62,418 bases of DNA from a virus (Duplodnaviria > Caudoviricetes): positions 1-62,418 of the IMG/VR virus record IMGVR_UViG_3300021963_000132; one strand, written 5' to 3'. The position numbers were made by a program, and so were the translations under genes. The notes beneath the pieces were generated by a model, which was given only the letters and a program-made list of their open reading frames with translations, did no database searches and was not told the origin of the DNA. Positions 1 through 40,331 of the stretch are shown here, in pieces (position 1 is the first letter of the stretch; every line of letters starts with the position of its first letter).

Positions 1-3000
1 TGATTCACTGACCAGAATGAAGCGACCATTGAAGGGTTTCAGTATTTTTTGCGCTGGCTTAAGGTCAATACCTACCCATTGAGAATGCGACCAATCGTAT
101 TCCGACAGGTCAATATTTGTGTCAATCTGGGCACGACCAAGGTACGAGTGACGCATATTGCGCCCAGCGAGGTCCTTGGGGCGAATGAATTGTTTACGGA
201 ACGTTTCGGTTCGTGGTGGCGATTTTGCACTGCGCATTGAACGCATTGTTGATGGACCGTTGGGGTCGTCGTCGTCACGGGGAATAGCGCTCCAGTATCG
301 TTCTACGCGCCGTGCATTTTCTTTGCCAAGAAACGCCTCGAAGACCCGCTGGTTAAGAATTTGGTAACGCCCATCTCGCGTGCGTTGAACTGCCAGTGAA
401 GGATTCGCCCCATCAACACTGTTATCATAAAGATAAAACTCATCCATATCGCCACGAAGAATCGCATCAGTAGTAGTTCTACGCAGGTCGTCGGAGTATC
501 CCTGGGCTTTATATAGGGGAAGGTCCGGTCCACCGCCCTTTGCTCGAGCACGCATTCGTTTTTCAGCAACATCAACAGGCGTATAGACAAAATGACCAAT
601 TGTCGTATACCCTGCACGCTTTGCCTCGGACAATTGTTCTGTCCTTACTCCAGTTCCCGTAACAACATGGTCGCGTTGTTGCTCAATCGCCTGTCTGCGT
701 CCATACCTTGTCCACTGAGTGGACCAACGATGGATTTCCAAGGCGCCCTTGCCACCATCCCATCGTGGGTGACCCTTTTTAATTTCATCTGGGTCAATAT
801 CGGGAATTTCATCTGGTGTTGGGACACCAATGAATACACCAGACTGACGCATGCGAGACTTCCCTGAACCGGTTGTACCACCCAAGAACCAAAGAGTGGG
901 CCTATCTGGGTCCATGTTTTTGCGTTTTGCACGTCCGAAGACTGCATCAAGAATCTGTTGACCGAGGCGTGTATCGGGGTCGTTGCTAACACGTGCCCGT
1001 GCTGCACTATCCGAGGCAGAGCGCATTGATTGAATGGTTGCACCAAATGCTGCGTCAACTTTATCCGGGGACATGCGAACAAGCACTTCCAATGGAGCGT
1101 CTTCTAGATAATCGGGGTGCTCGTCGTACCAGTCAATGGCCTCTTTCATTCGTGCACTTCTCATGCCCAGCAATCGGTCACCGAGTGCCTCTAGCCGCTC
1201 TGCCGACAAACTGCTACGACCGCCGCGGCCACGGTCATTACCAAAACGGGTGACGAATTCATTGACGCTTATGCCGAAGACATCAGCCATATTTTGTATT
1301 GATACATTGTCAACGGTAGCGCGGACGGCATAATTGTCATCTGTATATGCAGCAAAAGACTCTGCAAACCATTCGACGCGAGCAGTTTCTGCATACTCAC
1401 TTATTTTGCGTGCCGATGCACGTTCTTGCTTGGTTCCCCAACCGATACGCCGGTATTCGGGCTCAAATGCTCCACCCTCGAAGTCGGTCACATTGCGCGT
1501 TCCACGCTTGAGGTTCTCATGCATTTCGGCGAGCGTTTCAACATAGTGCTCTAGTGAACGAGGATTTTGTTTTGCGGCCATCACCTCCCAGGCGTGAGCC
1601 AGTTCGTGTCGCAACATCTGGTCAACGTCGATATTGCGAAACTCAAAACCACGTGCTCGTGCTGCATCCCCAAAATTTCCTGGATTTGGTATGGCTTCTG
1701 TATTGAACGCAATAAAACCGCTCGACGCATAGCCACCCATAACAAAGTTCCATGCCTCTGGCCCACCGCCACTGATGCCTAGCAGACCCATTCCTTCAAT
1801 ATCTGGCTGAAAATCAGTGACCACAATTGGTGGCATACCGAATTGGCGAAGTGCTGCGGCTACTCCTGGAGTATTCCCAACCTCATCTTGGAGCATAGTT
1901 CGAAGAACTTGAGCAGCCTCAAAGTTCGGCTCAGCATCAGCGATTCGTTTGATTAGGCGGCGCGCATAGTTGCGAGTATATGGATTAGCGCGAAGTGTTT
2001 CTTCTAATTCCTCGAGAGAGGTTGGTACCATCTGAGCGACAAGTTCTTTAAGGTCGGAGTATCCATAGAACTCATACTCGTCAGTTACCTCATCAATATT
2101 ACGCAAAACACCTGATACTTCTTTCCTCGCTTTTTTGCGCGATGTTGATGAAATATCCTCGCCAGTTGCTGCTTCCGTCGGAAGACCTCCCGATTGTCCC
2201 TCTTCCATTTGCTCTTTGCGTTTTTGCGTAGTTGGTTTTGGTTTTCGCAGACCGCCAAAGATGCTTCGCATGCTCTGTAGGGTTTCATTATCCCGTTCAT
2301 TTGTATCGCGTTGTGGTGCAATTGACTCTGGAACAATTCCAGCAATACGAGAGAATGTCTCAGGGTCAATTTCTCCCACTCCAGCGGTGCCGTATCGTCT
2401 ACGGTTATCCTCATTGGCAAGAGCGGTTCCCTCGAAGAGTTTGCTAATGCGCCGACCCGCTCCTTCTGGAACTATGAATTTGGGGATTACAGGACGCTCT
2501 AGTGGCGTACCTTCAAACACAATGCCATCTTTATCCGCATCAATGGCCCCAGTAACATCGACAAATACGAAACCATTAGGGGCGGAACGTAAACCACGGC
2601 CGATACGTTGACCAACCTTTGGCCCGAGTCTCTTTACTTCAATGCCTTCAAATGCATTTGGTGTTGACGGTCCGTGTAGGTCCTCATAGATACTTTTGGC
2701 ACGTCGCCGCTCCGCCTTGGGTTTTGCCTTGCGTATCGCATCCATGATGAATCGCTCAGAACGCTTTTTCATGTTCCTGCGCCCAAGAGCAGTTCGTCCA
2801 GTGCGATTAGAAAGGTCCGACATATTCGTGCATGGCATCCAGATTGTCCGACCCGAACGTGATATGCGGCGACTAATTCCAATACATCCAAGTTGGCGAG
2901 ACCTATCGCGCGCGGCTTCAATATCCGTAAAAACGTCTGGGTCTTCATCCCGTGGCGCGGCTGGCTGGTACGACTTTCCAACGACACCAGATACCAAACC

Positions 3001-3635: not shown

Positions 3636-6600
3636 TCAGTCTACTCTTTCGCCAGCATGTAGTTTGGCAACCATATCGGCGCTCAGTGGCACGCCATCTA
3701 TGACCGCCTTTTCAACTGCACGAGTCATTTCCAGACCACCAACTCCACCGTATGTAATTACCGCACCACGGTTAAACACAAGCATAACTCCATTGTTCGC
3801 ACGAATTGCGTCGTATCCATAAAGTGGTGCGAGAAGATTCCTTAGCACCCCACGGGTGGAGCCACGGGCAAAGTAATCAAGGGCAGCCAATGCACGCTTG
3901 CGGTCCTCTGGGTTTTTTGCATTGCGGACAGCATTGACCAACTCCATGATTGTTTTCCCACCACGTGTTTGCCATGCTGGGTCATCTGGTTGGTATTTTG
4001 CGTAAATGTTTTCCTCGATGAGTTCGAGAAGTCTCTTGAGTGCATCGCCTTCAGTTTTTTGCGCAAATCGTTCGGGAAGGTCTGGGCTAGAAAACGCCAA
4101 GTTAATGCCACCAGAAACATCTGCCAATTCATCTTGAAGTGTCTCCAACTCCCTCAACGTAATTACTTTTGCATCAGGTGCCAATGTCGCTACGGCTCCA
4201 CCTGGCCCAGGAATTGTATTTTTGAGCCGTTTTCCAGTCGCCGGGTCCGTTTGATTGTCAGCCGTAATATAACCTTCCCAGTTTGTTACAGCGGCGCGGG
4301 TGTCGCGTCCATCCTCCATAACAATGGCCCAGTACTCGCCGACACCCTGTGCCGAACCGCCTTTACCAGGTGTCACGCGACGTTCGCTGCTGTCGTCCAT
4401 GAAGTCCTCAGCGAATGTCTTTCCGCCGAATCCACGCCTAATAACACGTGCCCCTGGAACCTTTGACAGTTCAGTTAGTTCATCAAGCGTCACAACCGTT
4501 GGGCGGTGATTCAAATCAAGCACATTAAGAATTTGTGCAAGAATTGGGTCGTCGCCAGGGTTGAGACCCTTTTGCTTTTTCTTAATTTTTGCAGCCTCTT
4601 TCGTGTCTGCCTCTGCAAACAACTTACGGAGTTCCGAAAGTAGTTTGATTCCTTCTGGTGTGGTGGCCGAATCCTCGCCGGAGAAGACGCTCTTGCGCGT
4701 GGCGAGCGTCTTATTGGCAGAATCAACCGCACCATTGGCGTCATTACGTCCAGAAGCCAGTAGGCCCAAACGCGAGGCTTTATAACGAGCGAGGATGCGT
4801 AGTTCTTTCTTCGTCTTCTCCCGCGTGCCACTGGTTACCGTACCGCCAGTTCCCGTCTTTAGCGCCGTGAGGCGTCGAGCGGCATCACGCTTACGGTCAT
4901 TGCGGGCGTTGTAGCGCCTGACCCATTGACTTGGGTCGGGGATGATTGTCCTAGCCCAGAAAGAAGAGCCCTTGCGCTTGCTGCCAGTTTTTTCAGATAT
5001 ATCAGCAACATGGAACCCCATTCTGCGCAATGAAGAACTATCGGCATCTAGTTGTTCTTCGGAAACATCACCAAGAACATCAAAATCCTTTCCTTTACCG
5101 CGCAAGCGACCATCCCGGAGTTCGACCTTGTCTTTCCATTTCCACGTATTCCCAACATCGGCGAAAATTTGTTTGTCCAACTCGCCTGACCTGAAACGCT
5201 TAACTAGTTCCTTGTATTCCTTTTTCTTTTTGCTGACTGTACCTCGTTTGGTCCGTGGGACATCTGGAACATTGGCTGCTCCGCTTTCCATCCAGTCGTC
5301 AAACATTGCGTCAAGTGTTGCTCGTGACCCGATTATTCCATCTGGCTCAAACAATTCCTTCCTGTACGTTGAAGGCAGTTGTTCTGGAATGTACCGCATG
5401 GCGTCGCCGCCGTCAGCATTAGTTGAATTATTGTCGTTGCCCGCGAGTCGTCCCTTCGCAATGGTGGATAGTGCTGCCGCATCATCGAGGAATTGACGAT
5501 AAGCAATAGCAACTTTTTCGCGCTGAGTTTTTTTCGCAGCAAGAGAACGTTTGTTTTTTTCTACGTCAGTTCCCTGGGCAATTGCTTTGTTAAGGGCATC
5601 AATATCCTTGTCCAAATCGTCTAGGCGCGAGTTGTAGAGTTTGCGTACGCTAACGATTCTGGTCGCCAAGGTATCGGCGCCTTCTTTCGTGAGACCCAAA
5701 GTCATTTCACCAGTCTCTGGGTCACGAACTCCGGTAACCAATGAGTACTTTTGAAGTTTGGCGAATTTTTTTGCCTTACGCCCTTCAGCAGTGACTTCCT
5801 TTTGAACAGTCGCTCCATCGAGGGCAAGTCGTGGCGCCATGCTGTCACCAAAGATACCAACATCTCGATTTATTCCACCAGCAGACTCAAAAGCACCAAC
5901 TGCGTAGTTGTCGATATTGGCTACGTTCCCATTCGCATCAAATTCCACAGATAGCGAACCACCACTGAGGCGACGAATTGCAGCATCTTCGAGTTTCGCT
6001 ATACGAGAAATGGCCTCTTTACGCTGCTCGTCAGAAAGACTATCCCAGATTTCTCCATCAGAATCATCAATCTTTGTGTGTCCTGGGATAATCGCAATTC
6101 CGCTACGCATGCTTGTACCACGCTCGATGGTGGCAATACGCTGACGCTCCGACACGCTCCCACGAGAAACACCACGCGATGAGCGAAGTCCACCAGCAGG
6201 TTTGTTGGGTGTATCTATGCGTTCGTTAGGTGCCATGACGGAGAAGCGACCACGTCCCCGCAGTTCCCGCATCGCTCCGTCTGACAGTTCATATCCGTTG
6301 CGTCTAAGAATGCCGAGCAGGGCGTCTCTATCAACATTGAATTGTTCTGTTTTCCCGTTTTTGAAAACAACAGTAACGGTTCTTTGCTGAGGGTCGTAAT
6401 AGGCTCCACGCATTGTTGCGGTGTTTTCCTTGACCCGCTCGAGGACCGCTGCTCGGGGAGTTGGTCTGCTGCTGCGACTAGAGGGGCCGCGCGAGGAACG
6501 TGTGCTGGGACCCCCGTCGGTACCCATGCCTTCACCAAAATATGATTCCAACGCAGAATTGCGCATTCGCATAAATTCGTCGAGTTCTTCAGCAGAAGGC

Positions 6601-9600
6601 ATTGACAGTCTCGTGCCTTGAGCCTCTAGCATCGCAGATGTCCAGATATTGCCATCTGCGTCAGCACTCTCCATCTCTTCCAAGACACCTTGCAAGTCGG
6701 AAACATTTCCTCCAGGAAGATTGTCTGGGTCACTCATCCACTTGTCAACAGCCCTCTTCGCGCGAGCAAAGTCATCACGATTCATGACAATCATGTCATT
6801 CCCAGCGGCTGCATTTGCAAGTGCCGCATATAGGTCTGCTATGCCGCGGTAGTCGTCATCGCTGAAATTTTCAGCCGTACGATTGATTAGCCAGACAGCC
6901 TGGTCCAGGGCGCCATATTCAAGTATGGTCATGTCCCCTGCAATTTCATCATCACGAAGACCTGGTTCATCGGAACGTGGGCGTGCCGAACGTGCGGATG
7001 GCATTGAGAGTCTGGTTCCCTCTGCCTCAAGCATTGCTGATGTCCAGATATTGCCATCTGCGTCGGCAATCTCCATCTCATCTAGAACGCCCTGCAAATC
7101 AGAGACAAATCCACCAGGGAGATTGTCTGGATTATTCATCCAGTTGTCAACAGCCCTCTTTGCATTAGCAAAATCACCACGACTCATGACAATCATGTCG
7201 TTCGCAGCAATTGCGTTCTGAATTGCATCGCGTAGTGCCGCTACGGCCGGTGAGTTATCATCGCGCTGCAATAGGCGCACTGCATCATCAAGGGCGTCGT
7301 ACTCACCGATAGTCAAGTCACCGGCAATCTCGTTACTACGAAGACCTGGTTCATCGGAACGTGGGCGTGCCGAACGTGCGCTGCGGAAATTATTCGTATT
7401 TGCTCCCCGACGGCGACGCTTCCCACCGGGCGGCACATCTTCGGGGTCGCGGTCAAAACCATCATCACCAATCAGGTCTTCAAAATCGCGTTCGGCCCGG
7501 ATTGGGTCCCTTTCGTTGTCGCCACCGCGACGTGAACGCTGACTCCGGCTTGATTCTGGAGCCACATCCCGGACAAGGCGGCCAGTCCTCTTGTCACGCC
7601 ACCTACCCTTACTGTCCAAGTACAGATTAGGGTCAACTGCCATTCCTTGGCGAATTTCTTCTTCTAGTTCTGCTGAATCATCCTCTGGGTCATCAAAACC
7701 GGCGGCGATGGCGGCATCGCTGCGACGCGAACGTGTCGTGGGCGTATCGTTGCCACGCTTGAACGAGAAGATAGACAAACCACGCTTCCCTGGGGCCGCT
7801 GCCAATTTTTCTCCGCCAGGGGTAATCTTTGTGCCAGCAACATTGACACGAGCCTCGGGCGTATATTGAGAAAAGTCATCTGCGTACTTCTTCGCCATTT
7901 TCTGACGAGCGGCCAATGTGTCAATGAATGTTTTGCGCATTGCCGCTGGGACGCCAGAGTTGGCCATTTCCTTATCAATAGCGACCAAGTCGAGACCTTC
8001 AACTCTGCGCATTGATGTTACGAAATCGTCATTAGAAACATTCCCGTAGAGGTACTTGGATTGAGCGCTTTGGCTATAAATCATTGTTGCTGGCTCAATC
8101 CATGGGTCGTTTGGATTGAAGGATGGCTTGTCACCTCCGCGTGCGCGGTATAGCCCACCACCGCCAGTATCGAGACGAATAGCGGCACCGGTTCTTGCAT
8201 CCCACTTGGTGTTCTCCCCACCTCCGAATACGTCCCAATTGGAGAGTGCCATATCGATGCCCATGTCAAGTTTTGCAACTGCACGCTGCCGTGCATCTGG
8301 GCGGCCAAGCGTCTCTAGGCCATCTATGCCCTCACTGATAATGTGAGGCTTGCCCTTACCATCAACGATTACGGCGACGTTTGGAGCATGAGCGCCAGCA
8401 GCACGGTAGACAGCAGCAACGGCCGCTTCGTTATAGGCATGATTTGGCGTTGGGGTAGGCTTTACGAAGAACTTACGTCCTGTCTTATCGTCCCTGTACC
8501 ACTGGCCACCGTTGGACCCAAGTGGGCCACTAATGCGTGTCATTCCGTCTAGGTCCTTGAAAGACGGCAATGGACCATTGCCAATTACAGGACCGGTGTA
8601 TGCCGAGCGCATGCTCTGGGGATTATCGTATCCGAAGAAATCCCTGACCTCTTTGGGCGTAATTACTCGACCATCAGCGAGATAGACGAATCCATCGCCA
8701 CGTGCTTCATTCGGTCCAGGACTGCGATATGGCCCCCGGACGTAATCGTCGGCAGTAGACCCAGTGCCACGATATGGCCCCTGGTTGAACCACTCTTTAT
8801 GCCCACGTAGTACGCTGAAATCTACGTCATCAAGAGTCTCAACGGCACTAACAAAATTGCCTGCCGGTACAAAGGACGCACGACGACTACGCGAAGAATC
8901 GTCAGGGCGCATGGATGGGGACATATGCTCAATTCGGTCCCAGAACGATTCAGCCATCTCCATCGCCAACAAGTCCAGCATTGTTTCATCAATATCAGAA
9001 CCCATTTCGTCACGAAGTGCCTGTCGAGCATTTAGGAAGTCTTGTGTTCGTGCTGCTGGGAAATCGACGTCCTCGAAGATATCGGCGATTTCTGCATGGT
9101 CATCGTTGTTGACATCAAAGACTTCCGCGCCAGGGTAGACGTCAAGTGGACGCTTCGACTTGCTATTGAAGTCAATCAACCGCGACGTAGCCCTAAGTAC
9201 CGTATCACGCCGGTCTCTGCGACTGCTACGCGAAGAGGGTTGACCAGGAAGTCGTCCAATTCGGTCCCAGAATGATGCAGTCATCTCCATCGCCATGTCG
9301 TCTATGCCCGCCATGTAGATATCGGAACCCGGCCCCTCAATCATCGGGTGGTTCTCAAGAAGTGCCTGTCGAGCATTTAGGAAGTCTTGTGTTCGTGCTG
9401 CTGGGAAATCAGCATCACTAAATTCTTCGTAAATTGCGGCATGGTCATCATTATCCGGGTCAAATACTTCAGCACCGGGGAAAACATCTAGTGGGTTCCT
9501 TGACCTAGTGTTGAAGTCGGCCAACTTCGACATAGCGCTACGACCGCTACGCTGACTTGGCCTTGCTCCACCCTTGCGTCGGCGCCAGGTTCCGTCCCTG

Positions 9601-14823: not shown

Positions 14824-15162
14824 CTAAATGCCTTCCGTAATAGTCGCAAGGATAGATGAGAGTATCTGCTCTCCGCGTTGAGACGACCAGAAAAATTCGC
14901 GCTGCGAAGGTGGAATAGATAATACATTATGAACAACAAACATCATTGGCAGAGTATCTCCAGACCTATTGAATACAAGTGACGACGATGGTTTATTGGT
15001 GCTGTCGTACGATACGCGCTTGTCGCGATGGGGGTCTTCCCCCGTTATTAGTTGACGAGCGAAACCGATACATTCATCCGGTGTATAGCGAGAATTGCCT
15101 AGTGAGACTACATTTGTTCCAAATAGTCTAATAATTTCTTGATACCACTGTTCGTCGGTCAT
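14824..15162 (-). CDS. Hypothetical protein (112 aa)
   Basis: ATG overlaps the upstream TGA (4-nt overlap); lies within the operon. Confidence 0.7.
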   Translation of the reverse strand: MTDEQWYQEIIRLFGTNVVSLGNSRYTPDECIGFARQLITGEDPHRDKRVSYDSTNKPSSSLVFNRSGDTLPMMFVVHNVLSIPPSQREFFWSSQRGEQILSSILATITEGI

Positions 15163-28411: not shown

Positions 28412-28433
28412 TCCGGGCTCCAATCCCTAGTGC

Positions 28434-30047: not shown

Positions 30048-30197
30048 TTGTTGACTCCTTGCTTGGGATGGCGCAACGTTCAGTTGTATTGGATAGTAGT
30101 CGCAAGGCGACATTCTGTTGGGAAAGATAAAATTGGATTTATTGCTCTGGCCACTCGAGTATACAGCAAATTAATGCTGCTATTTCTGCAATTTTGA

Positions 30198-33100
30198 CTA
30201 TTCATACAGGGCAACTTCTACCTCATCGCCTTGTTCATTAATTTTCTTTATGGTACGTGAATTTATGGGCTGTACAGTCTTATCTACAAAAGTTGCCATT
30301 GCTGCCTTTGCCATCAGTTCTGCCATCTCTGCAAAAAGGGATACACGAACATCACCACCCCTTCCCAGTTGTCGGTCAAGTGCGACATATAGTGCTTCAA
30401 TTATTTCATCAAGTTCACGCTGTGTAAGGAAGAGTGCGCCAGCATTGGTTCTTTTGTCAGTAAGTAATCCAGATTTTTGCCGACGCATAATCTGCTTCAG
30501 CATTAACAGTGCTTGCTTTGTTCTGGCATCGTCGGCTTTCTGTGCCTCGACATCGAGGGAGTCCATTAATTCTTTAAAACGTGTTGCTTCTGCCCTAATC
30601 TCTGCGCGGCCATCTTTTTGACTCCTCATTGAGGCGGGCTTTTGCTGTTCGTTGCGTCGGGCAGCAAAGTATTTTTCGACATCTGGAATTCGATTAAAGG
30701 AGTTGCGCTTTGCCGATGAAGGCCTTTGCCTCTGTGGTTCAATTACTTGAGTCAACTTTGCGCCACGACCGGGGGTTCTGTCTATAAATGGGTCGTCGGC
30801 ATAGGACTCTCTTATTTTTTGCAAGCCATCCCTAATGCCTTCTGCGTTGGCAATATTTTTGAGTACTACTTGCTTTGAGCGAGCATTTGTTCGCGGCCCG
30901 AATCCGGAACCCCTGTTGGCCAAGGCATCCGCCACAACATCACTGACCAAATAATCATCAAGTAGCGATAGGGCATCGTCTAATTGACCAATTGATAAAT
31001 CACGACCCTCATCTGGGCTTGGTGATTCAAATAATTTATTGAGGTCGCGCCAAATCAGACTATGGCGCATGTCATCGTTGCGTGCTGCATACCCGGCGGC
31101 AATTGCGTCATCCATTTGTGCAATAAATTCGGATATTTTATTTGCTCGATTTTGTCTTTGCTGCTTGGCAGCCACTGGGTTATCTGGGGTTGATGATGTC
31201 CTTGCTTTACGTTTCTCGCTTTCGGTAATTCGTTTCGTAAGAGAAGAACGACTCAGCAGCGATGCCAACGAGTTATCTACCGATGATGGTCCATCACTAG
31301 CACGCTCGACGCCAACCGGAGCCTGCGGGTCCTCCTCTTCCAAAAGCATTCCTGAACGCAACTTGCGAGACACCGCTTCTAGTGTTTTTTGGCTAGCAGT
31401 TATTGCATCTTGCCACAAAGCGTTAATGTCAGCATCATTTATTTCTAGCGGGCCCGTCTTCTTCTTGTTTGCCTCTGGGCGCAATATCCGTATGACATCA
31501 ACGGCTTGAAGTGGATTCAGTTCCAAGAAGTCCAAATCGTAAACTTTTTGTGATTGGAAATTCAGAGCATCCTTCGAGGAACTTGATAGCGAATCCCAGG
31601 ACCTAGCGAAAGACGGTAGTGAGCCACGGGAGTCGGGTGCGTCATATGCGAGCGACTCAAATTTTTGTTTTTGTTCGGCGTTGCTGTCCGCCAAGGACAA
31701 CACGGAGAAAATATTATTTGCTTCATCAATTGCATCTTGCTTGCGAATCCCCTTCTTATTGTCTGGAGATGCGCTGTTTTGATTAATCCATGCCAATTTC
31801 TCCACTGGTGACATATTTTTGTATTCCGGTGGAATCATTTGCCTTAGCGGAGAGCCAGCACCATTATCAATTCTTGTAAAATTGCTGGTTCCTGAACTGC
31901 GCATTGATTGTGGGGACAGATTTCGGAGTGCTTGCAGGCCATTCCATTCATTGAGTGTTAGTCGTGAACTCAGGGATATCTCTTTTGCTATGCCGATGTT
32001 TGAAGATTGAGCCCAGGCGAGTAGTTTTTCTTGCTCCTCTTTCCCCATCGACATTGGTGCGCCATTGTTGAAAAGCGTTTCGCTTGAAATTCCGGAAATG
32101 CGACCCATATCGGTTGTGTCAAATTTATTCTTTGGACTAGCCGCCGCTTGCTCAAGTGGCGTGAAGCCTGACATTGCTGGTAAACCCGGTTGCTTATATG
32201 CAAATTCGTATGCTTGTAATATTTCGGCAAATTGTGCTGGACTAACAGAAAAGTTTGAACGAATTCCGCTACCTTGCGAACCTTCGATTAGTGCGTCATA
32301 TAATTTGAATCCAGCAGCAGCATTTGTATTCGCCTGAAACACTTGTTGCAGGCGCGCAAGTTCATCACGGATAATTCCCATTTCGTCACTGGAAAGGCTT
32401 ATGTCTATTGGGTTTTGTGGCAGGGACCCAAACCTACGAGAGAGTGGGGCAATCTGGTTTTTGAACATTGTTGAAACACCGACCGAGTCAACAGCATCAA
32501 GGATATTGGTCGCCATGGCTGGCTCACCATTGCTGAATAGACGGGAGACAAGGCTGTGAAGTTTTTCTGGTGTAACGGATTCAATAGCCTGGGCATTAGC
32601 ACCAGAAACAAGACCGTCAAGAATTGATTTAACGGTTTTTTGTTCGTTGTCTGATAATTGAACCCTCTTGATATCGCGCTCTAGTAGTGACTTGAGGTCG
32701 GGGACACGTCCACGCGCACGTCCTCCAGAATCAACGACATAGCGAGCGTTTGTAGCAATGTCATTAAGTGCTTGACGCGCAGAAGACCTACCGAATGCAA
32801 AATTTTCAATTTCCGTGTCGGTCAATCCGCCATATCGTATGACGTTTCCATTCTTTTTGCCGACAATGACTTCGCCCCTATTGCCATCTATGTTGATGAA
32901 TCGAACATCGGAGTCAGCAAACTTCTCACTTCTCCCGGGATAAAGGCGTTCCGTGTCCGGTAGACCCCTTCCGGTGGGGACGCTTGACCTGCCCATGGTT
33001 CGTCCCACGCGCTTTGCGCTTCGCGTTGTCGGAGCGATTGCGAGAACTTCGCTTTCCGTAATGTCGGCCGAAGTTGTATTGATGATTGCATTTTTTGCAC

Positions 33101-36100
33101 TTAGTAGTTGTTTGCCGCGCTGTATGGAAACATAAGCATGACGCAGCATGTGTGTTGCCGCTGAATTGATTGCTCTAATTTCATCTTCGTCATTAACATC
33201 ATCTAATGACAAAACTTCATCAATATCAAAATTATAAAATGGCGTAAAGTTATTTGAATCCTTTGCAAATTCTTTAATAATTTTATTCAAACTATCTGCA
33301 AGGTTATTAGCCGACATTGTGCTCGCCCTACCACCTGCCGGAAGGTCAAATAGTATTTCTCGTTCCCGTGGTGAGCCCTGTATAAGTGCCGATACTTGTT
33401 GCCATTCATCTTGAGAAAGACCGACTTTATCAATGTCCTTAGCCGTATATTTCTTGGCATCAGAAAGAGCAATTTCTCTAGTAATTTTGTCAATAGAATC
33501 CTGGCGTTGCTCGGCCAACAGATATTCAATAGTTGATTGAACCTCTTCAATCTCGTCACCTACGGCCAAAAGCATGTTGTCCAATACGCCAAAACGCAAG
33601 TCGTCTTCATCTGACAATTCGCCCTCTTCGTTTATCCGTGCTTCGATTTGGTCTCGCTGTGCTGAAATACTTGCGTTTTCTTCAAGTAGACGCTTTACAC
33701 GACTCTTTATTTTTTCATGATTTAGATTTCTGAAATCATCCAAAATGTCTGCCCGTACAGCAGGCAATAGGGAACGAGAACTTCGCATGGAGGCGGAGCG
33801 ACCGACATTCAATAATTGATGGTCATCCTGCACGTAGGCCGAAAGTGATGAGCCAGTTTTTAGGTCGCGCAGTAACACTTGTGATGAATTTTTCTTAGCC
33901 TTACTTATGCCCATCACAACGTAACGTTGTTCACCCTGGAGGTCCAAATTGGAAAGAAAGTTGTTGGGCAATATGTCGCCCAGTTTTATGTCGCCACCAA
34001 ATGAGAGATAGCCGTCTTGTCCATCTGGCGATGATGAACCAATGGGCCTTCCGGCTACCCCGTAGTTCAGTCCTACAGTATTCGCCGCAAGGTCCTGCAG
34101 GTAGCGCGCCCTCTCCCCAACCGCTCGCCCACTTTTCATGGAGCGATACTCACGCCATTCATTTTTGCTCGGGCCTTGGTCCTTCTTGCCGGGTATCTTT
34201 TTGGCGCGACGACGCTGCTCTTGCTCGAGGCGAACTTGCTCCGGGGTGAGTTTCTTCATGTTGCTGGTAACTTTTTTATCACCGGTAACATTCCATTTTT
34301 TGCGATTTTTGCCTCTGCGTGACCGCATTGAAAGTGGCTGACCCCCACTAAGGAACATTGCGTCAATTTTGTCAACACCAAGTGCAGTTAGTTGACCAAA
34401 ATCAAGTTCCGCCAAGTCCGACTTTTCTAGTTCGGTGCCATACATTTCGTTATAGTCCGCAATGAGCCCGCGCACCATGTTCATTTCTTCAGGTGACAAC
34501 TGTGGCTGCCGTTCGCCGTCAATATCGAAACCAAGCAAACGGCTCAACCCATCACGTACCCCATTGTCACGCTGCTGACGTAATTGCGCATAATTGGCCA
34601 ATGAATTGAATACGCTGTCGTCAATTACGCCATCATCAAACATGTCCTGAACAACAGGGTCAAATTTTCTCTGCGAACGGAAGTTGGGAACCGCCTGTGA
34701 ATAAAACACAATATCGAGTGGTTTCAACAATGGGTCGTTGTCAATATTGAGGCGCTCTCCGGCATCGATGAGGGCACGCATGCGCCTCTGGGCAACAACG
34801 TCTTGGTATGTGTTGCGTATTGCCGTATGGGCGCTGAGCCATGCATCGTGCTCTTCTACGCTCATTTCCCCGCTCGCCTTGCGGCGGCGCATCTCCACTG
34901 CGTCGGAGTCAAGTTTGTCTCCAAAATTATTAAATTCCCTATCATTCATAGATTGCAAATTGCTAATTAGTTTCCAGTCTTTAAATTCACGACCTTTTCG
35001 TGTCGTCAATTGCTGTCCTGTTCTAAGTGTTTCTGACTCTATAAACTCTGGCAATTTTGCTGACGAAAGTGGAATGCGTCTATCAATCTGTTCTGGTAGG
35101 GCCTGCGGGTTCGGTGCGGCAAAGAACATGGGGTCCGTAAAACGCGTGCTGCGTGCATCGCCCATCCGCAATCTGGTGACCATATAGCCACGTGTCTGCA
35201 GTTCAAGAATTATCTGGTCCGAACTAGGAAACCATGAAGGGATTGTGACGCCAGAATCATCTGGCGTTGCCGCTTTTTCTGGAATCCTTATGTTGTACAT
35301 CTCAAGTGCATCGATTAGTTCACCATCACTAAATGATGCAAGTGCGGGATTCGGCGTAGTTGTTGGTGCAACCTGCACCTGTTCGGTTAATACAGGACTT
35401 GTCTTCAAGTCGAATCGTGGTGGAGCAATCTTTGTATCGCTATTGCCAGTTCTTCTCGAACGAAGTGATGTTGGGGTTGGCGTCGGCGACATCAACAGAT
35501 TGATTTCATCTTCACTAAAGCCAAGGCCTCGCATCCAGGCAATTTGTTTTTGCCTTTGTTGCTCAAGAAACGCAGCCGAATCCCATGTTTGCTCCCCAGC
35601 GGATGGGGCAATTCCCTGTTGTGGTTGTTTTGGTTTTTCTTCAAGCGGTTCTTCTGGCCTGGCTTCAACGCGTCTGCGCCCGGTTATCTGCGCCCTTTCT
35701 TTACCAAGTTCCGCCGAGCGCCTGCGTAGCGGAATTTGTTCTTTGCGGTACTCATCCAGTGTTATCTCTTCAGCGTCGAGCCGCGCATCAAGGTTTGCCA
35801 TTGACTTGGATATTTGGCTAAGTTCATCATCAATGTCTTTGATATTTCGCGCAGAACGCACGCCTGTTGGCTCACCTGGAATTGTGTCATCAGAAACAAC
35901 GCTTCTAGATGACCGGGCAGAGGCAATACTCCTGTCGCCAGATTCGTTAATTATCCTCTGTGCACGCCGTGCGAATGAGGGCAATAACTCATCATTGTCA
36001 CGCATCTCCAAAATTTCTTCAGCCGTGAACCACTCAACATTTGTATTTTCTCCATCGCGAGGACGTAGTTTCCGCAATTCCCGCGGCCCAACCTCATAAA

Positions 36101-39100
36101 CATATGTATCGTAGGTCCAGTCTGGTGCCATGGGGTCAGAGAAGGAGTACACGGGCTCAATTGCCCTAATGTCTCCGCCGACCTCTTGCATGAATTCGTC
36201 AACGGCGGTAATCCCCGGAATCATCGCATCTATTTCATCACGATGTGCTCCACCAGGGAATGACCACTTACCGGCACCCACGCTCATATTCGGCGAACGG
36301 CGAGCCAACAGATATTCATAAGTTCCGTCTTTGCGTTTACGCCTTACAAGGGCACCAGATGCACCGTAGCGGCCATAGAAACGACGTCCAGTTACGGAGA
36401 AGTAATAGCCTTCGCCAGTACGCTGATTGTTGCCTCCACCAAGGGGGGCGAAAAACGGCAAAAACGGTGGTTTAATAAGTCCATTGCGTAGTGCCCGAAC
36501 ATGCTGGTAGGAGATGTCTCGCGCATAATGAATGCCATCATCTGTTCGGCGTATTTCGTAGGTGTCCCAGATTTTTTCGCTCAATGGCTCCTCTGGGTCT
36601 ATGTCTCGTTTTCTTGCAGTCTTCGGACGAACCCTGCGCGTGCTGCGCGTGCTGCGGCTAGTGGGCTCTGATGCTCGTGCTGTTGGTGCATGCCAGGGTG
36701 GCAGGTATTCATCCGTATCAGAAAAATCCTCAATTTCTAGGAGGCGCAGTATTTCTTCAAAAAGAGTGTCTTTTGTTATGTTTATTTCCCCAACGAATCG
36801 ACGACCAGCAAAAGACTCTATACCACGACTTCTTGCCAATTGCTCACGACTCACAAAAAGGTGATACGGATTCGATGTCTTGATTAATTTTTTAAGTGTA
36901 TTGAGTTGCTTATCCGTGATTGTGCTGGCATCTACGGTAAGTTCGCCTCCAAGTCCGGTCATGAGGCGAACCATCCCATCACCAAAGGCATCCTGATAAT
37001 CAAATTCCATCTCGTGTCGGTCAACGGGATAAAGAGTTCCGTCTGGATACATCCATGCACCCCAATAGAAACTTTTTGCGAATTCATCAACAGACATTTT
37101 CTGCATCGCCATTGGTCGTGGATTAGCGCCACGGCGCAGACGGGAACCGGCATCCAGACCCTTAATCACGTCCTTTAGGTCATTAATGATTGTGTCACGT
37201 GCTGGTGAGGGCGGCGCGTGCTCCATCAATAAGCGAAGTAAATCTGCCCTTCGTTGACTCCCCAAAACCACATAGGGATTGTTGTACATGGCTCCTTCAT
37301 CAATTAAACTTTGTAATATTCTGGATGTTTTGGCTATTTCTTGTTCATCATCATCGTCACTATCGCCAAGTCTGTCATCAATATCTTCCAGTATGGACAA
37401 AAGTTTGGCATTCTCCTCAAGACCGCGTTCTTTGCGTTGCTCTTTCCAATTTATGGCTTGCTGCTGCCGCTCTTTAATACGGCGTCGTTTCTCTTGGATT
37501 TGGGGGTCGTCGTCAATTGAAATACTGGAGCGCATTGAGCGTGTAGATGACGATGTGGCATCGGACTGCGTGGGGCGGGTGGTTATCCCCTCGCGTACCC
37601 CCACTTTCTCAATTTGTTCTGTTGTGATTTCCCAGGCGTCGTCGTCTTTTTCGATAAACACACTCGCGTGTGGGATGCGTGCTGCGAGGTCCGTGATTGC
37701 GTTAATTTGCTCATCAGTTGGAGGATTTGTGGTGTTGTAATCGATAACGATATTGCCAGGAATCGTCCGAATTTCGTAGTCTCGGCCTGGGAGCATCCAG
37801 TTGACGCGAGTCTTCTCGCGAGTTGCGACAAGCCTGATGAGCCCATCAGAAAATGCCTCTTCATAATCGTGCTCATCGCCATGGTAAAAACCAACTGGAT
37901 ATATCGAGCCATCCGGATATATCCAGCCCGCTCCCCAATCGGAATCAGCAAACTCTTCTGATGTTATTCGGTCAAAATGCAGACTTCGCTCATTACCGCC
38001 GCGTCGTCGCCGCAGGGGCTGTGTGGACTCTTCGCGTAATCGTTTTTTGATGTCGGCGCGCAGAGCAATGACAATTTGTTGTTCTTCTGGTGTCAGCGGT
38101 TCAACCTTCTCGCCATATTCCGTGATTATGGCGTCAATGGTAAGCAACCCATCTATGGATGAAGCCCCAGCATCGGTTGCAAGGGGATTATCCAATGCGG
38201 CAGAATCAGAAATAACTCCGCGTAGCAGGTCATCTCTCTTTTCTAGAGCAGTTCTCGCATACCAATTATCACCATCATCACTTCTTGGTCGCGGCTCGTC
38301 ATCACCGGTCAAGTTTGCTACTACGTCTGAATTCAAAATACGTGTTAGAAGGTCAACGAGTGTGCGATTTCGCTCAGTTCTTTTGTATCTAGTCCGTACC
38401 TCTCGGGAAAGTGCTTCGCGTTGTTCTTGTTTGGCCTTGGCGGCTAATTTTCGTCCTTCTGGCGACTCCCGAGTGACCAAACGTCTGGAGCGCTGCGTTC
38501 TGCTGCTTCGTCCATCGAGTAGCCCACGGGTGGTTGGCAACGAACGTGCTGGGCTACCCCCAGATAGGCGCTCCTCTCTAACCGATATTCCCTCAACCGA
38601 ATCAAGGGCAACTTTGCCAAGGTCTTCATCGGAGGCATCGGCAAGACGGATTGACCGAGTTGACCTCATTGAAACTTGTTGGTCAGGCGGGTCTAGGCGG
38701 TCAATGACTTCGTCAATCGGCCCGTCATAGTTCAGGAAACCAACCTCGATTTGTTCTCGTGTAAATTGGCTGGGTAGGTCTATGTTGCTTATTTGAGTTG
38801 GTGGCCTTACTATTCTGGTTATCCAGTTAGAAGCAACTTCAGCAAGTGTTGCCCGTAAATATATTTCTCTGTCTTCTTCTGTCAAATCCTCTAAACCCGG
38901 TATTTGGCGGAGGCTATTCCAGAAGTCCTTATCCCTCGCAAATGAAAGAGACGCAAGTATATTTCCCCACTCTGAATGTCGGTCAAAGGTGTTTCCTAAC
39001 GTATAGTGACCCAAAATGTCATGAAAGACAGTAAGGGGACTTAACACAAAACCACGTTTTTCTAGTTCGTCATGAATGCTCTGCCATGCATGGGGGTCTG

Positions 39101-40331
39101 TCAGTAGGTGTAGGTAGCCGTGAATAAACTCGTTTTCGTTTTTATTTGCTCCGCCAATTCTGGCATCTTCATTACGTGCTATTTTTTCTAATTCCGGAAT
39201 TATGTAATATTTGAGAAGTTTTGCAGAAATTTCATTAGCACGCAACATAATTGCATTTTGTGAATTGGCGCTGTAATCAGTCTTTAGTTGCTCCACATAT
39301 TTGTCCATAAACAAATCGTGGAAGGGGAATCGTTCGCCGTTTCCTGGCCACTTGGCAAGATTCGCATTACGTCTATTGCCGCCCTGGAACGTTGAATTGA
39401 CGAGGTCCTCCCACTTGGCCGCATCGCGGTTATTTGAAAGGTCGTCCACAATCTCCTGCAGAACCCCTGCATTGGGAATTTCGGTATTGTGGTAATCCCT
39501 GTCCCCTGGCAACAAGGAGCGGAGAATCCCATTCGGCGGAAGTCTGAGCGAAATTGTGCCATCGTCGTGAATCCGCAACTCAGAATTATTTACGATGTCC
39601 TCAATGGTAAGGTCAATATCTGGATGTGATTCAAATCCATCAATGATGGTTTTTCTTCTGAGAAGACCAGTACGCTCACGACGACCCATTAATTCCCATA
39701 CGTCACGCATCTGCCTAAGGTTGTTGACCAGTAGATACGTTTGTCGCTCAATGCGGTTTTTCTGAATAGGCGTCCAGTCCCCCATAGACAGAATTTTTTG
39801 TTCAAGTTTTTCGCGTATGCCGAGCCAGAAGTAACCTCTGCCCAAGTTATCTAATTCCTCGTAGTCCGAGTCATCTTTGTCCGTGCCCTCTACAACAACA
39901 TCACTTAGCGGAATTCTTTCACGGATGCTTCGCATGGATACTCGACCACGAGCAGTCCGGGCATCTCTCAGTTGTTCTGGCTTGCCGTCAATTCCACTGA
40001 GCAATGACCGCAATTTGTTCTCATCAAACTCAATGTTGACATTTCCGGCACGGCGCTGGTTTTCAATCTCAACAGCGTCACCTTCGGTCAACTTCGCAAG
40101 CCGTCGAGCAAGATTCTTGGGAACAATAAAACGAGGAATTATTGGACGCTCAAGTGGTTTGCCTTCAAAGACGATGCCATCTGCGTCAGCGTCAACAACG
40201 CCAGTAATGTCAACAAATGCCATGCCTGGTCCAGCGGAGCGCAACCCACCACCTAGGCGCTGGCCAACCCTGGGGCCGAGTTGTTTCAGTTCGGCATTGA
40301 GCCCTGACTCAGGAAAGTCGGGCGTCAGTAT
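30198..40331 (-). CDS. Giant multidomain protein (3377 codons), predicted to be expressed as a -1 frameshift extension of the prohead protease; DxDxDG leader, HDxxGH motif, Nudix, KTSC-like
   Basis: The frame is open upstream of the track's TTG (40244) as far as the A7 run at 40331-40337, and the conserved leader (KQLGPRVGQRLGGGLRS) begins before that TTG. Nudix: YGASGALV...YLLARRS...WSFPGGAHRDE...AVDEFMQEVG. HDILGH at 39006-39023. Confidence 0.88.
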   Translation of the reverse strand: MLTPDFPESGLNAELKQLGPRVGQRLGGGLRSAGPGMAFVDITGVVDADADGIVFEGKPLERPIIPRFIVPKNLARRLAKLTEGDAVEIENQRRAGNVNIEFDENKLRSLLSGIDGKPEQLRDARTARGRVSMRSIRERIPLSDVVVEGTDKDDSDYEELDNLGRGYFWLGIREKLEQKILSMGDWTPIQKNRIERQTYLLVNNLRQMRDVWELMGRRERTGLLRRKTIIDGFESHPDIDLTIEDIVNNSELRIHDDGTISLRLPPNGILRSLLPGDRDYHNTEIPNAGVLQEIVDDLSNNRDAAKWEDLVNSTFQGGNRRNANLAKWPGNGERFPFHDLFMDKYVEQLKTDYSANSQNAIMLRANEISAKLLKYYIIPELEKIARNEDARIGGANKNENEFIHGYLHLLTDPHAWQSIHDELEKRGFVLSPLTVFHDILGHYTLGNTFDRHSEWGNILASLSFARDKDFWNSLRQIPGLEDLTEEDREIYLRATLAEVASNWITRIVRPPTQISNIDLPSQFTREQIEVGFLNYDGPIDEVIDRLDPPDQQVSMRSTRSIRLADASDEDLGKVALDSVEGISVREERLSGGSPARSLPTTRGLLDGRSSRTQRSRRLVTRESPEGRKLAAKAKQEQREALSREVRTRYKRTERNRTLVDLLTRILNSDVVANLTGDDEPRPRSDDGDNWYARTALEKRDDLLRGVISDSAALDNPLATDAGASSIDGLLTIDAIITEYGEKVEPLTPEEQQIVIALRADIKKRLREESTQPLRRRRGGNERSLHFDRITSEEFADSDWGAGWIYPDGSIYPVGFYHGDEHDYEEAFSDGLIRLVATREKTRVNWMLPGRDYEIRTIPGNIVIDYNTTNPPTDEQINAITDLAARIPHASVFIEKDDDAWEITTEQIEKVGVREGITTRPTQSDATSSSTRSMRSSISIDDDPQIQEKRRRIKERQQQAINWKEQRKERGLEENAKLLSILEDIDDRLGDSDDDDEQEIAKTSRILQSLIDEGAMYNNPYVVLGSQRRADLLRLLMEHAPPSPARDTIINDLKDVIKGLDAGSRLRRGANPRPMAMQKMSVDEFAKSFYWGAWMYPDGTLYPVDRHEMEFDYQDAFGDGMVRLMTGLGGELTVDASTITDKQLNTLKKLIKTSNPYHLFVSREQLARSRGIESFAGRRFVGEINITKDTLFEEILRLLEIEDFSDTDEYLPPWHAPTARASEPTSRSTRSTRRVRPKTARKRDIDPEEPLSEKIWDTYEIRRTDDGIHYARDISYQHVRALRNGLIKPPFLPFFAPLGGGNNQRTGEGYYFSVTGRRFYGRYGASGALVRRKRKDGTYEYLLARRSPNMSVGAGKWSFPGGAHRDEIDAMIPGITAVDEFMQEVGGDIRAIEPVYSFSDPMAPDWTYDTYVYEVGPRELRKLRPRDGENTNVEWFTAEEILEMRDNDELLPSFARRAQRIINESGDRSIASARSSRSVVSDDTIPGEPTGVRSARNIKDIDDELSQISKSMANLDARLDAEEITLDEYRKEQIPLRRRSAELGKERAQITGRRRVEARPEEPLEEKPKQPQQGIAPSAGEQTWDSAAFLEQQRQKQIAWMRGLGFSEDEINLLMSPTPTPTSLRSRRTGNSDTKIAPPRFDLKTSPVLTEQVQVAPTTTPNPALASFSDGELIDALEMYNIRIPEKAATPDDSGVTIPSWFPSSDQIILELQTRGYMVTRLRMGDARSTRFTDPMFFAAPNPQALPEQIDRRIPLSSAKLPEFIESETLRTGQQLTTRKGREFKDWKLISNLQSMNDREFNNFGDKLDSDAVEMRRRKASGEMSVEEHDAWLSAHTAIRNTYQDVVAQRRMRALIDAGERLNIDNDPLLKPLDIVFYSQAVPNFRSQRKFDPVVQDMFDDGVIDDSVFNSLANYAQLRQQRDNGVRDGLSRLLGFDIDGERQPQLSPEEMNMVRGLIADYNEMYGTELEKSDLAELDFGQLTALGVDKIDAMFLSGGQPLSMRSRRGKNRKKWNVTGDKKVTSNMKKLTPEQVRLEQEQRRRAKKIPGKKDQGPSKNEWREYRSMKSGRAVGERARYLQDLAANTVGLNYGVAGRPIGSSSPDGQDGYLSFGGDIKLGDILPNNFLSNLDLQGEQRYVVMGISKAKKNSSQVLLRDLKTGSSLSAYVQDDHQLLNVGRSASMRSSRSLLPAVRADILDDFRNLNHEKIKSRVKRLLEENASISAQRDQIEARINEEGELSDEDDLRFGVLDNMLLAVGDEIEEVQSTIEYLLAEQRQDSIDKITREIALSDAKKYTAKDIDKVGLSQDEWQQVSALIQGSPREREILFDLPAGGRASTMSANNLADSLNKIIKEFAKDSNNFTPFYNFDIDEVLSLDDVNDEDEIRAINSAATHMLRHAYVSIQRGKQLLSAKNAIINTTSADITESEVLAIAPTTRSAKRVGRTMGRSSVPTGRGLPDTERLYPGRSEKFADSDVRFINIDGNRGEVIVGKKNGNVIRYGGLTDTEIENFAFGRSSARQALNDIATNARYVVDSGGRARGRVPDLKSLLERDIKRVQLSDNEQKTVKSILDGLVSGANAQAIESVTPEKLHSLVSRLFSNGEPAMATNILDAVDSVGVSTMFKNQIAPLSRRFGSLPQNPIDISLSSDEMGIIRDELARLQQVFQANTNAAAGFKLYDALIEGSQGSGIRSNFSVSPAQFAEILQAYEFAYKQPGLPAMSGFTPLEQAAASPKNKFDTTDMGRISGISSETLFNNGAPMSMGKEEQEKLLAWAQSSNIGIAKEISLSSRLTLNEWNGLQALRNLSPQSMRSSGTSNFTRIDNGAGSPLRQMIPPEYKNMSPVEKLAWINQNSASPDNKKGIRKQDAIDEANNIFSVLSLADSNAEQKQKFESLAYDAPDSRGSLPSFARSWDSLSSSSKDALNFQSQKVYDLDFLELNPLQAVDVIRILRPEANKKKTGPLEINDADINALWQDAITASQKTLEAVSRKLRSGMLLEEEDPQAPVGVERASDGPSSVDNSLASLLSRSSLTKRITESEKRKARTSSTPDNPVAAKQQRQNRANKISEFIAQMDDAIAAGYAARNDDMRHSLIWRDLNKLFESPSPDEGRDLSIGQLDDALSLLDDYLVSDVVADALANRGSGFGPRTNARSKQVVLKNIANAEGIRDGLQKIRESYADDPFIDRTPGRGAKLTQVIEPQRQRPSSAKRNSFNRIPDVEKYFAARRNEQQKPASMRSQKDGRAEIRAEATRFKELMDSLDVEAQKADDARTKQALLMLKQIMRRQKSGLLTDKRTNAGALFLTQRELDEIIEALYVALDRQLGRGGDVRVSLFAEMAELMAKAAMATFVDKTVQPINSRTIKKINEQGDEVEVALYE

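Follow-up and report, generated by a model that had tools for sequence, protein, structure and literature searches.

Recurrent linker motifs in the giant proteins of an uncultured aquatic phage as candidate prohead-protease cleavage sites

We analysed a 62,418-nucleotide (nt) contig of an uncultured aquatic tailed phage (Duplodnaviria; Caudoviricetes; IMG/VR record IMGVR_UViG_3300021963_000132), called the window throughout, which is estimated to be 42% complete, the whole genome being about 150 kb. The minus strand of the window carries, in order, a portal gene, a prohead protease gene and open reading frames (ORFs) of 3348, 559, 3364, 1057, 208, 677 and 2840 amino acids (aa), followed by a last one of more than 1111 aa, with more than 40 kb of giant genes lying downstream of the portal and the protease. 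Five of the encoded proteins, here H3348, F3364, E1057, B2840 and A1111 (11,720 aa in all), carry a short recurrent motif, for which we used a core pattern, [SGT][MLTSA]RS, and a strict pattern, [SGT][MLTSA]RS.[RK]. An initial annotation had noticed this motif by eye at module boundaries and had implied that the phage's own protease reads it. The sites may be those at which the prohead protease cuts the five giants.

All five giants are encoded on the minus strand. The first of them, H3348 (30198..40244), has 16 core sites, 12 of them strict, located at aa 103, 525/528, 900/903, 1195/1198, 1442/1445, 1593, 1972, 2152/2155, 2406, 2780 and 3205; the pieces between sites are domain-sized (102-425 aa), and sites bracket a NUDIX module. 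F3364 (18329..28423) has nine core sites (seven strict) together with KTSC, a ParB-like region and an HExxH motif at aa 593. E1057 (15159..18332), with an HExxH motif at aa 546, has a single site, SMRSIR at aa 200, right after an N-terminal module shared with other giants, and this site aligns to SLRSIT in the orthologue from the related record G001. Fifteen core sites, 12 of them strict, are found in B2840 (3636..12158), which contains two pentapeptide-repeat blocks. A1111 (1..3333) runs off the contig at its C-terminus, its G001 orthologue being 2,770 aa long; it has seven core sites (four strict), a Zeta_toxin domain, two DUF3721 copies and an HExxH motif at aa 576.

Motif counts in the giants were compared with those in the other 30 ORFs of the window (~8,200 aa) and with 300 whole-protein shuffles per pattern. 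The strict pattern occurred 36 times in the giants, against 0.7 ± 0.8 in shuffles (maximum 5), and was absent from the other 30 ORFs; the core pattern occurred 48 times, against 4.9 ± 2.2 (maximum 13), with one match in the other ORFs. The tripeptide MRS was found 23 times (1.9 in shuffles, three in the other ORFs) and SMRS 16 times (0.1 in shuffles, one in the other ORFs). Local composition was controlled by shuffling within blocks of 10, 20 and 40 aa (500 shuffles each), which left 1.55, 1.18 and 0.88 strict matches, with a maximum of 7. Order mattered as well: the reversed pattern matched twice in its strict form against 36 forward matches and eight times in its four-residue form against 48, and 10 of the 11 other permutations of SMRS did not occur at all, MRSS being found four times. 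Since block shuffles, reversed patterns and permuted patterns all gave low counts, the motif is not an effect of composition. The 36 strict matches agree with the roughly 35-40 instances in five proteins that the initial annotation had reported; all 26 example strings it quoted were present in the proteins named, spanning nt 223-39938 (225-39940 as first given). The enrichment it had expected over shuffles and non-structural proteins was found, and its impression that replication and metabolism genes lack the motif held, with no strict match outside the giants.

A logo drawn from the 48 core sites reads P-[P/R/Q]-S-M-R-S-x-R-[S/G/T]. The invariant Arg is encoded by all six of its codons (CGT 17, CGC 14, CGA 6, CGG 6, AGA 3, AGG 2), and the invariant Ser likewise by all six codons from both Ser families (TCA 13, AGC 11, AGT 10, TCG 6, TCC 5, TCT 3). 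Related flanks were detected in one pair of sites only, at B2840 aa 1593 and 1721. Because every Arg and Ser codon is used and a single pair has related flanks, the signal lies at the protein level and does not stem from recent duplication; the annotation's view that selection acts on the protein, based on varied codon use, is borne out by these codon counts and by the order-specific pattern. The motif might still be a functionless by-product of low-complexity linkers rich in Ser and Arg, or of recent duplication, as the SR-rich form of some instances (SSRSSR, SARSAR) and the one recently duplicated pair would allow. This explanation is contradicted by the low counts in block shuffles and in reversed or permuted patterns, against 36 in the giants, and by the unrelated flanks of every other site pair; we regard it as extremely improbable, and two further points against it emerge from the related phages described below.

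The sites lie between modules. We ran Pfam on the 43 motif-delimited pieces of at least 40 aa, and every Pfam or PHROG domain match (two pentapeptide, NUDIX, Zeta_toxin, two KTSC, two DUF3721 and ParB-like) fell inside one motif-delimited piece. The pentapeptide blocks of B2840 (E 9e-41 and 2.9e-32) are bracketed by the sites at aa 447, 607 and 810, and occupy pieces 451-610 and 611-813; the NUDIX match (E 3.2e-6) lies in H3348 piece 1202-1448; the ParB-like PHROG match at F3364 aa 2894-2985 lies within piece 2547-3055; and the Zeta_toxin match lies in A1111 piece 773-1035, bracketed by the sites at aa 769 and 1029-1032. The bracketing of pentapeptide, Nudix, kinase and ParB modules described in the annotation is therefore confirmed, with one correction of name: the module called a kinase is bracketed as stated, but its domain is of the zeta-toxin type and not a protein kinase. 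Zeta toxins are small-molecule kinases. Unrelated effector-type domains are thus spread over the five giants, in a block that in relatives runs to the capsid gene, a make-up of the polyvalent type.

The surroundings of the sites resemble flexible linkers. The hydrophobic fraction of the site flanks was 0.204, lower than the 0.271 of random positions (z -5.8), and the flanks were rich in P/S/T/G/Q/N/R/K (z 4.3); the TOP-IDP scale was applied in the same script. A single-sequence AF2 model of B2840 aa 400-860 placed all three of its sites at pLDDT <50, flanking confident beta-helix, and the corresponding model of H3348 aa 1150-1650, with a mean pLDDT of 44, was too poor for statements about linkers.

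Four of the five giants have in common a module of ~105-130 aa, found at A1111 aa 228-357, B2840 aa 204-330, E1057 aa ~109-203 and H3348 aa 1-106 plus an upstream extension, with the consensus K.LG.K.GQR.G.GLR-S/A-..G..FVD.TG..DAD.DG..FEG. In H3348 it directly follows the protease. The module had no family match, and a protein-atlas search gave no usable match; it may be a capsid-targeting or docking module. In the annotation the motif was also said to coincide with duplication boundaries. That holds for this module of about 105 aa, which ends in SMRS, and for GMRSQR, which separates the two pentapeptide blocks. For insertions and deletions the agreement is partial: of the 17 large indels that separate the window from the related locus L017, only 6 begin or end 15 alignment columns or less from a site, a count that comes without a control and is not used here as evidence. 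The exception is the segment H3348 aa 107-531 (window 38652-39926), which is present in the window and in locus L007, absent from L010, L017 and L018, and has its deletion edges at motif sites, in the manner of a cassette-like gain or loss of modules.

The behaviour of the motif in related phages carries most of the argument. The protease has 640 relatives at E <= 1e-20, and through it we found 60 related loci, in which a giant ORF follows the protease wherever the downstream DNA suffices. The giant of each clade has its own over-represented tetrapeptide, and the matrix of genomes by motifs is nearly diagonal: STRS is the form in L007 and L010, SSRS in L004, GMSS / GMRS in L015 and L017, (R)GMAS(R) in L020, GSKSTT in L023, [RK]LSSG[RK] in L025, L030, L034, L047 and L048, FSSGR in L051 and GMRS in L062, with a degenerate form, G[LM][RSA]S, in L022 (6 found, 0.43 expected). 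A core of [S/G]-[M/T/L/F/S]-[R/K/S/A]-S, with the Ser invariant, is common to all clades. The clade forms are concentrated in the giants, as in the window: the complete genome of record G003 (160 kb) has 14 [LF]SSG in its protease-giant fusion and six in its other 43,904 aa, and G001 has 51 copies of its motif in four giants (12,617 aa) and five in 14,736 aa elsewhere.

Sites also hold their places while their wording differs. In an alignment of 12 sequences comprising the protease and the first giant, window sites align with the motifs peculiar to the other clades, as in PLSMRSRRGKNRKKW / LMSTRSRRGKNRKKW / GGMSSKRKSNKKITSKW at one site and PASMRSQKDGRAEIR / STRSTRSSTKEGRAEIR / AEGMRSSTGMASKTGRAEI / ITGSKSTTSDGRRKME / RGMSSRSGGSGRQGRTMIT at a second. 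Among the 11 site clusters of H3348, the numbers coinciding with a motif of the partner were nine for L007, eight for L010, six for L017, five for L018, four for L023 and three for L020, with permutation means of at most 1.3. When all five giants were compared with their orthologues in G001, which belongs to the STRS clade, 24 of 39 clusters coincided, where the permutation means sum to ~3.5. MRS and TRS are found 23 and 10 times, respectively, in the window giants, and 3 and 45 times in the G001 giants; 13 of the 23 window MRS lie opposite T/S/L/-RS in the G001 alignment and none lies opposite MRS. In the comparison with L007 the R and S positions were identical in 20 of 28 cases, against 127 of 317 flanking positions. 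This conservation of R and S inside variable linkers and the parallel M-to-T differences at aligned sites are the two further points against a mere by-product of composition or duplication. Positional conservation combined with concerted, clade-wise change is what co-evolution with one trans-acting reader predicts, and the pattern of dispersed sites that keep their place and change their wording together points to a single trans-acting recogniser.

Such a recogniser need not be a protease. Concerted change and conserved position require only that the sites have a common reader, and the motif might remain uncut, serving as the docking or modification site of one trans-acting factor, for example by being phosphorylated at Ser, by making contacts for packaging or with the scaffold, or by binding DNA with its basic residues. 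The window version of the motif is basic, with R at 0 and +3, and a zeta-toxin-type kinase domain is present among the giants. Against this, no protein-kinase family was found in the giants; the GMSS, GMAS and GSKSTT forms of other clades are non-basic, which speaks against a DNA-binding patch; and strict placement between modules, at the 102-425 aa spacing of H3348, is needed for processing and not for docking. We consider an uncut site quite unlikely. A protease of the host might instead cut the sites after the giants enter the cell, with the clade forms tracking hosts. Clade-wise change would be compatible with host switching, and post-injection processing of polyvalent proteins is one of the options discussed in the survey by Iyer et al. 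2017 (PMC5512222). However, clades with differing motifs differ slightly elsewhere in the head module and come from similar water metagenomes, which counts weakly against host tracking, and a host enzyme accounts neither for the way the giants are tied to the protease of the phage nor for the resemblance to an HK97-type K|S site, both set out in the following paragraphs. It appears very unlikely.

The prohead protease I474 (474 aa; 40325..41749, minus strand) is the proposed reader of the motif. It belongs to the HK97 family (Peptidase_S78), with a PF04586 match at aa 32-184 (Pfam, E 4.9e-13), a PHROG match to 'head maturation protease' (E 5e-28) and a C-terminal extension of ~280 aa, and it is 39-41% identical to the proteases of the cultured phages GMA6, DalanDe and Cantare. 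Its gene follows the portal gene (41820..43868, minus strand; Pfam Phage_portal, E 8.3e-45) and immediately precedes the first giant, which places it in a head-module context. Four to ten nt upstream of the protease stop codon lies a slippery heptamer, A_AAA_AAA (40331..40337, minus strand), the proposed site of a -1 programmed frameshift: the protease frame here reads GGT TCA AAA AAA TAC TGA, and a -1 slip enters the frame of the giant. The sequence GGTGGTTCAAAAAAA is shared, without a single nucleotide difference, by the window and 14 of the 60 loci, which come from three clades (L003, L005-L012 and L015-L019), and the stop codons that follow it differ. Among the remaining loci, the protease is fused in frame to the giant in 32 of the 60, L023 has another arrangement, one lies at a contig end and 12 had no match to the anchor pattern. 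At the A-run, no insertion or deletion is seen in any of three assemblies made independently (X3, X4 and X15).

If the giant were translated through such a slip, then its frame should be open and conserved from the heptamer to the TTG listed as the 'start' of H3348. This stretch (40245..40337, minus strand) is open, conserved and devoid of ATG, GTG and TTG, start codons being absent for 31 codons after the slip site, and translates to FKKILTPDFPESGLNAELKQLGPRVGQRLGGG, followed by LRS. Ahead of the listed TTG, the H3348 frame stays open over 40 codons and overlaps the protease stop, and that TTG is probably not a true start. A stop in the frame of the giant lies three codons before the slippery run in L015-L017 and L019 and ten codons before it in L018. 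Differences in the -1 frame are mostly synonymous, with synonymous to non-synonymous counts of 7:2 between the window and L003, 3:0 between L010 and L011, and 5:0 between L015 and L018. A homologue of the stretch is internal in A1111 (aa 228-250) and is in frame in the fused clades. Downstream, a predicted hairpin (40301..40323, minus strand) starts 7 nt after the slippery run and is a possible stimulator of frameshifting; it folds in 10 of 10 sequences in ViennaRNA, with energy z scores of -0.9 to -3.4 against mononucleotide shuffles, and RNAalifold keeps its outer GCCC/GGG(C/U) stem in all ten. From these features we infer a -1 frameshift like that of dnaX or Gag-Pol, which would make a protease-giant fusion of ~3,850 aa with the predicted trans-frame junction peptide ...GGSKK-ILTPDFPESGLNAELK. 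Alternatively, the A-run may cause slippage during transcription in place of ribosomal frameshifting. An RNA contig, X17, covers nt 40386-40663 only and has no bearing on frameshifting or expression.

The likeness of the motif to a known cleavage site comes from the founder of the protease family. The capsid protein of the relatives is a close homologue of HK97 gp5 (E ~1e-55). Of the 385 residues of gp5, 282 make up the mature HK97 chain deposited in the PDB, the alignment offset fits a start at Ser104, and gp5 reads TFNK|SLG at the 103/104 boundary; taken together, the 282-residue chain and this sequence indicate that the founder S78 protease cuts between a basic residue and Ser. In the capsid proteins of the family under study, the delta domain or N-arm contains EIKSLI, SFKSVG(D/E)xF and EFKSLQ, with one to three [FI]KS within the first ~150 residues (three in 3 of 5 records, two in L064 and L067), and this [FI]KS sits where HK97 has K|S. 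By analogy, the cut in the giants would most likely fall before the invariant Ser, between Arg and Ser. The alternative is a cut after the invariant Ser in a P3-x-P1 pattern like the A-X-E of phage SPN3US. The T4 prohead cleavage pattern is L/I-x-E.

The capsid gene of the window was not found as a PF05065 match within the contig and is located beyond its left end; in the relatives it lies 23-48 kb downstream of the protease. The motif was not found in the head proteins of cultured relatives, among which a k-mer scan returned only EIKS, four times, in the capsid protein of the culturable relative DalanDe. The four copies fall in the N-terminal 140 residues of the product of the DalanDe capsid gene (L001:27476-28846), and this EIKS is possibly a cleavage motif of the delta domain.

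We propose that the motifs are cleavage sites for the prohead protease in packaged polyvalent polyproteins, in a Gag-Pro-Pol-like arrangement, a reading we hold to be moderately probable. The giants would be strings of independent modules joined by flexible, hydrophobic-poor linkers, each linker with P-x-S-M-R-S-x-R. The protease would be made alone and also, through a -1 slip at A_AAA_AAA, as the ~3,850-aa fusion with the first giant, the other giants being translated separately. The procapsid would take in the fusion, together with the other giants through the shared ~105-aa N-terminal module, and the activated protease would then cut at the motif in every linker, most likely at the bond equivalent to HK97 K103|S104. 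Some 45 domain-sized pieces would remain in the head, to be ejected with the DNA as ready-made enzymes for takeover or anti-defence. Cleavage, packaging and ejection are steps that we infer. The concerted change of the motif among clades, the link of protease to giant by frameshift or fusion, and the likeness to HK97 K|S and capsid [FI]KS support, as far as sequence goes, the role that the initial annotation implied for the phage protease.

Several observations weigh against this assignment. No cleavage product has been observed. The capsid [FI]KS does not follow the motif of the clade; its constancy across clades implies that the protease would need to tolerate any of K, R, S and A in the position preceding the invariant Ser. 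The catalytic domain of the protease, whose catalytic Ser is that of the conserved EWSIGY, is highly conserved between clades with different motifs, and a comparison of protease columns with motif class yielded few candidate specificity positions, such as the residue preceding EQEWS, which are confounded by phylogeny. There is no strict motif in the neighbouring protein G559 or in the C-terminal part of the protease. As for the aligned sites, MAFFT may pull similar short motifs together and so inflate the coincidence counts, and in the LSSG clade only 0-1 of the 11 clusters coincide, at an alignment identity of only ~23%, so that positional correspondence is not shown for that clade. The hairpin showed two-sided compensation in none of 9 pairs (RNAalifold, 10 sequences). 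A predicted complex of protease aa 12-195 (21-row alignment) with a 40-aa linker peptide, H3348 aa 1954-1993, scored 0.00 in a run that had no controls and counts neither for nor against cleavage. Another protease is also at hand, in the HExxH domains of three of the five giants and the MPTase-PolyVal domain of the giant in the LSSG clade.

This last point leads to the main rival. The sites may be cut by a zincin-like metallopeptidase domain inside the giants, on the MPTase model, in cis or in trans, and either in the head or after injection. The three HExxH motifs, HELAHAW at A1111 aa 576 (~nt 1591-1605), HEMTHAL at E1057 aa 546 (~16681-16695) and HELGHALQ at F3364 aa 593 (~26632-26646), stand in a plausible zincin context and recur in G003 and in the orthologues from G001. 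The first giant of the LSSG clade (L047:16592-17494, record G003) has ArdC-N and MPTase-PolyVal (PF18818, E 3.7e-44), hallmarks of the published polyvalent proteins that Pfam did not find in the giants of the window, a processing role for MPTase was proposed by Iyer et al. 2017 (PMC5512222), and the variable hydrophobic M/L/F/T of the motif could serve as the P1' residue of a zincin. However, 31 of the 48 core sites lie in H3348 and B2840, which have no HExxH, and the HExxH regions of the window match no peptidase family significantly, the best being M61 at E 0.0023, short of the cut-off for that family. A metallopeptidase would also leave unexplained why the Ser is invariant, why the motif resembles HK97 K|S and the capsid [FI]KS, and why the S78 protease is joined to the first giant by frameshift or fusion. 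We therefore judge it unlikely as the enzyme that reads the motif, and retain cleavage by the prohead protease as the preferred reading.

Two proteins of the block lack the motif. G559 (28434..30113, minus strand) is acidic and rich in D/E/M, with two Cys-rich stretches, and has no motif after its likely start codon, the true start probably being the Met near aa 24. It is kept directly after the first giant in nine related loci and across all clades, and over aa 456-534 it shows 45.6% identity to the C-terminal end of the DalanDe 'capsid maturation protease', a protein of 1,633 aa; it is likely a scaffold or capsid-docking protein. C677 (12155-14188, minus strand) is conserved better than any other protein in the block, sharing 75% identity with the orthologue in G001. 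For C677 a protein-atlas search (score at most 0.83) returned phage clusters in which some members have ADP-ribosyltransferase domains, which serves as a lead only. At the N-terminus of A1111, the two DUF3721 copies (aa 28-56 and 140-171; window ~2821-3250, minus strand) may hint at the host, DUF3721 being known mainly from marine picocyanobacteria. The plus strand encodes the large terminase, Rad52, a PD-(D/E)XK nuclease, RuvC, ParB, a class II ribonucleotide reductase and a PAPS-reductase-like gene. The terminase (777 aa; 44154-46487, plus strand) has a LAGLIDADG_3 match (E 1.2e-6) at aa 350-406, ahead of the RNaseH-like nuclease domain; this match is probably an intein or homing-endonuclease insertion.

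The closest cultured phages are the Gordonia phages GMA6 and DalanDe and the Brevibacterium phage Cantare, all myoviruses, which share with the window only the portal and the protease, at ~40% identity. A tblastn search of H3348 aa 1-3000 against 50,697 phage records gave zero matches, leaving the giants with no cultured relative there. Two complete uncultured genomes with terminal repeats, of 137 and 160 kb, are related to the window. DNA nearly identical to window 39300-41300 (at least 86% of sampled words) was present in estuary, freshwater, aquatic and marine metagenome runs from several studies, which suggests that the phage is widespread in waters of varying salinity.

For the lineage as a whole, it is plausible, if short of probable, that these aquatic phages of 140-160 kb devote up to a third of the genome to a Gag-Pro-Pol-like polyprotein arsenal that is diced in the capsid and whose linker code co-evolves with the protease. 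The S78 protease would be fused, by -1 frameshift or directly, to a chain of effector modules of more than 3,000 aa, with further giants co-packaged. If this is true, then tailed phages can use polyprotein logic at a scale undescribed for them, with more than 11,700 aa of cargo per genome giving ~45 modules, a cleavage code that extends genome-wide, cargo fused to the protease and a stoichiometry set by frameshifting. It would offer a testable answer to the question of processing left open by the 2017 survey of polyvalent proteins. The six or more motif variants, occurring with near-identical S78 proteases that differ at few positions, amount to a natural specificity experiment, and the linker code divides giant 'hypothetical' phage ORFs into units that are candidate anti-defence or takeover enzymes, in a lineage common in water metagenomes. 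In PMC open-access and bioRxiv full text, subscription-only papers lying outside this scope, we found no paper on a prohead protease fused or frameshifted to giant polyproteins and no description of a recurrent linker cleavage code in HK97-type phages.

The proposed system combines features of several known ones. In T4, phiKZ, 201phi2-1 and SPN3US (gp21, gp175, gp245), a phage prohead protease likewise reads a short motif in proteins that lie inside the head and are later ejected; for SPN3US gp245, 14 sites are reported in nine proteins, cut after A-X-E with Ser favoured at P1' (PMC10052503). The T4 group differs in having a gp21-type protease and a motif ending in Glu, and mostly loses N-terminal propeptides, whereas here the protease is of the HK97/S78 type, the motif is [SG]-[MTLF]-[RKSA]-S, and proteins of 1,057 to 3,364 aa (one giant being truncated by the contig) have 1-16 sites each and would be diced whole, one of the substrates being translationally fused, by prediction, to the protease itself. 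HK97 gp4/gp5 shares the Peptidase_S78 family, and its K103|S104 cut in gp5 resembles M-R-S and [FI]-K-S; unlike the present case, HK97 has no packaged polyproteins, its protease is a stand-alone protein of 225 aa and its P2 residue is N. Polyvalent proteins (Iyer, Burroughs, Anand, de Souza and Aravind 2017; P1 DarB/DdrB, N4 vRNAP) are likewise very large multi-effector proteins encoded beside virion genes, and the likeness extends to the ArdC-N and MPTase-PolyVal domains in a relative's giant and to the ParB-like, zeta-toxin, Nudix and pentapeptide modules of the window; they differ in that processing is proposed to be by MPTase, and the passages of the survey consulted here (PMC5512222) describe no recurrent linker motif and no link to a prohead protease.

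Comparisons beyond phage heads concern the frameshift and the fold. In retroviral Gag-Pro-Pol and in dnaX (A_AAA_AAG), a slippery X_XXY_YYZ heptamer and a hairpin yield a minor long product, and in retroviruses this long product joins a capsid-associated protease to enzymes that are freed at consensus sites in the particle. The slippery heptamer is present here, with a hairpin predicted downstream; the differences are a DNA phage, a capsid of the HK97 fold, a serine protease with an assemblin-like fold and a frameshift that is predicted, with many clades fused in frame instead. Herpesvirus assemblin, whose fold is related to that of phage prohead proteases, cuts at (V/L/I)-x-A|S, and the likeness to the present motif lies in the Ser after the scissile bond and the hydrophobic residue two or three positions before it; assemblin is not known to cut anything beyond itself and the scaffold, where it has two sites, or to have polyprotein cargo. 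Processing of packaged head proteins at a short motif by a T4-type protease, polyvalent proteins and -1 frameshifts are thus each established already. What would be new, judging from the full text searched, is their combination in an HK97-type system, the scale of five giants with 48 sites over more than 40 kb, the translational link between cargo and protease, and the clade-wise turnover of the code.

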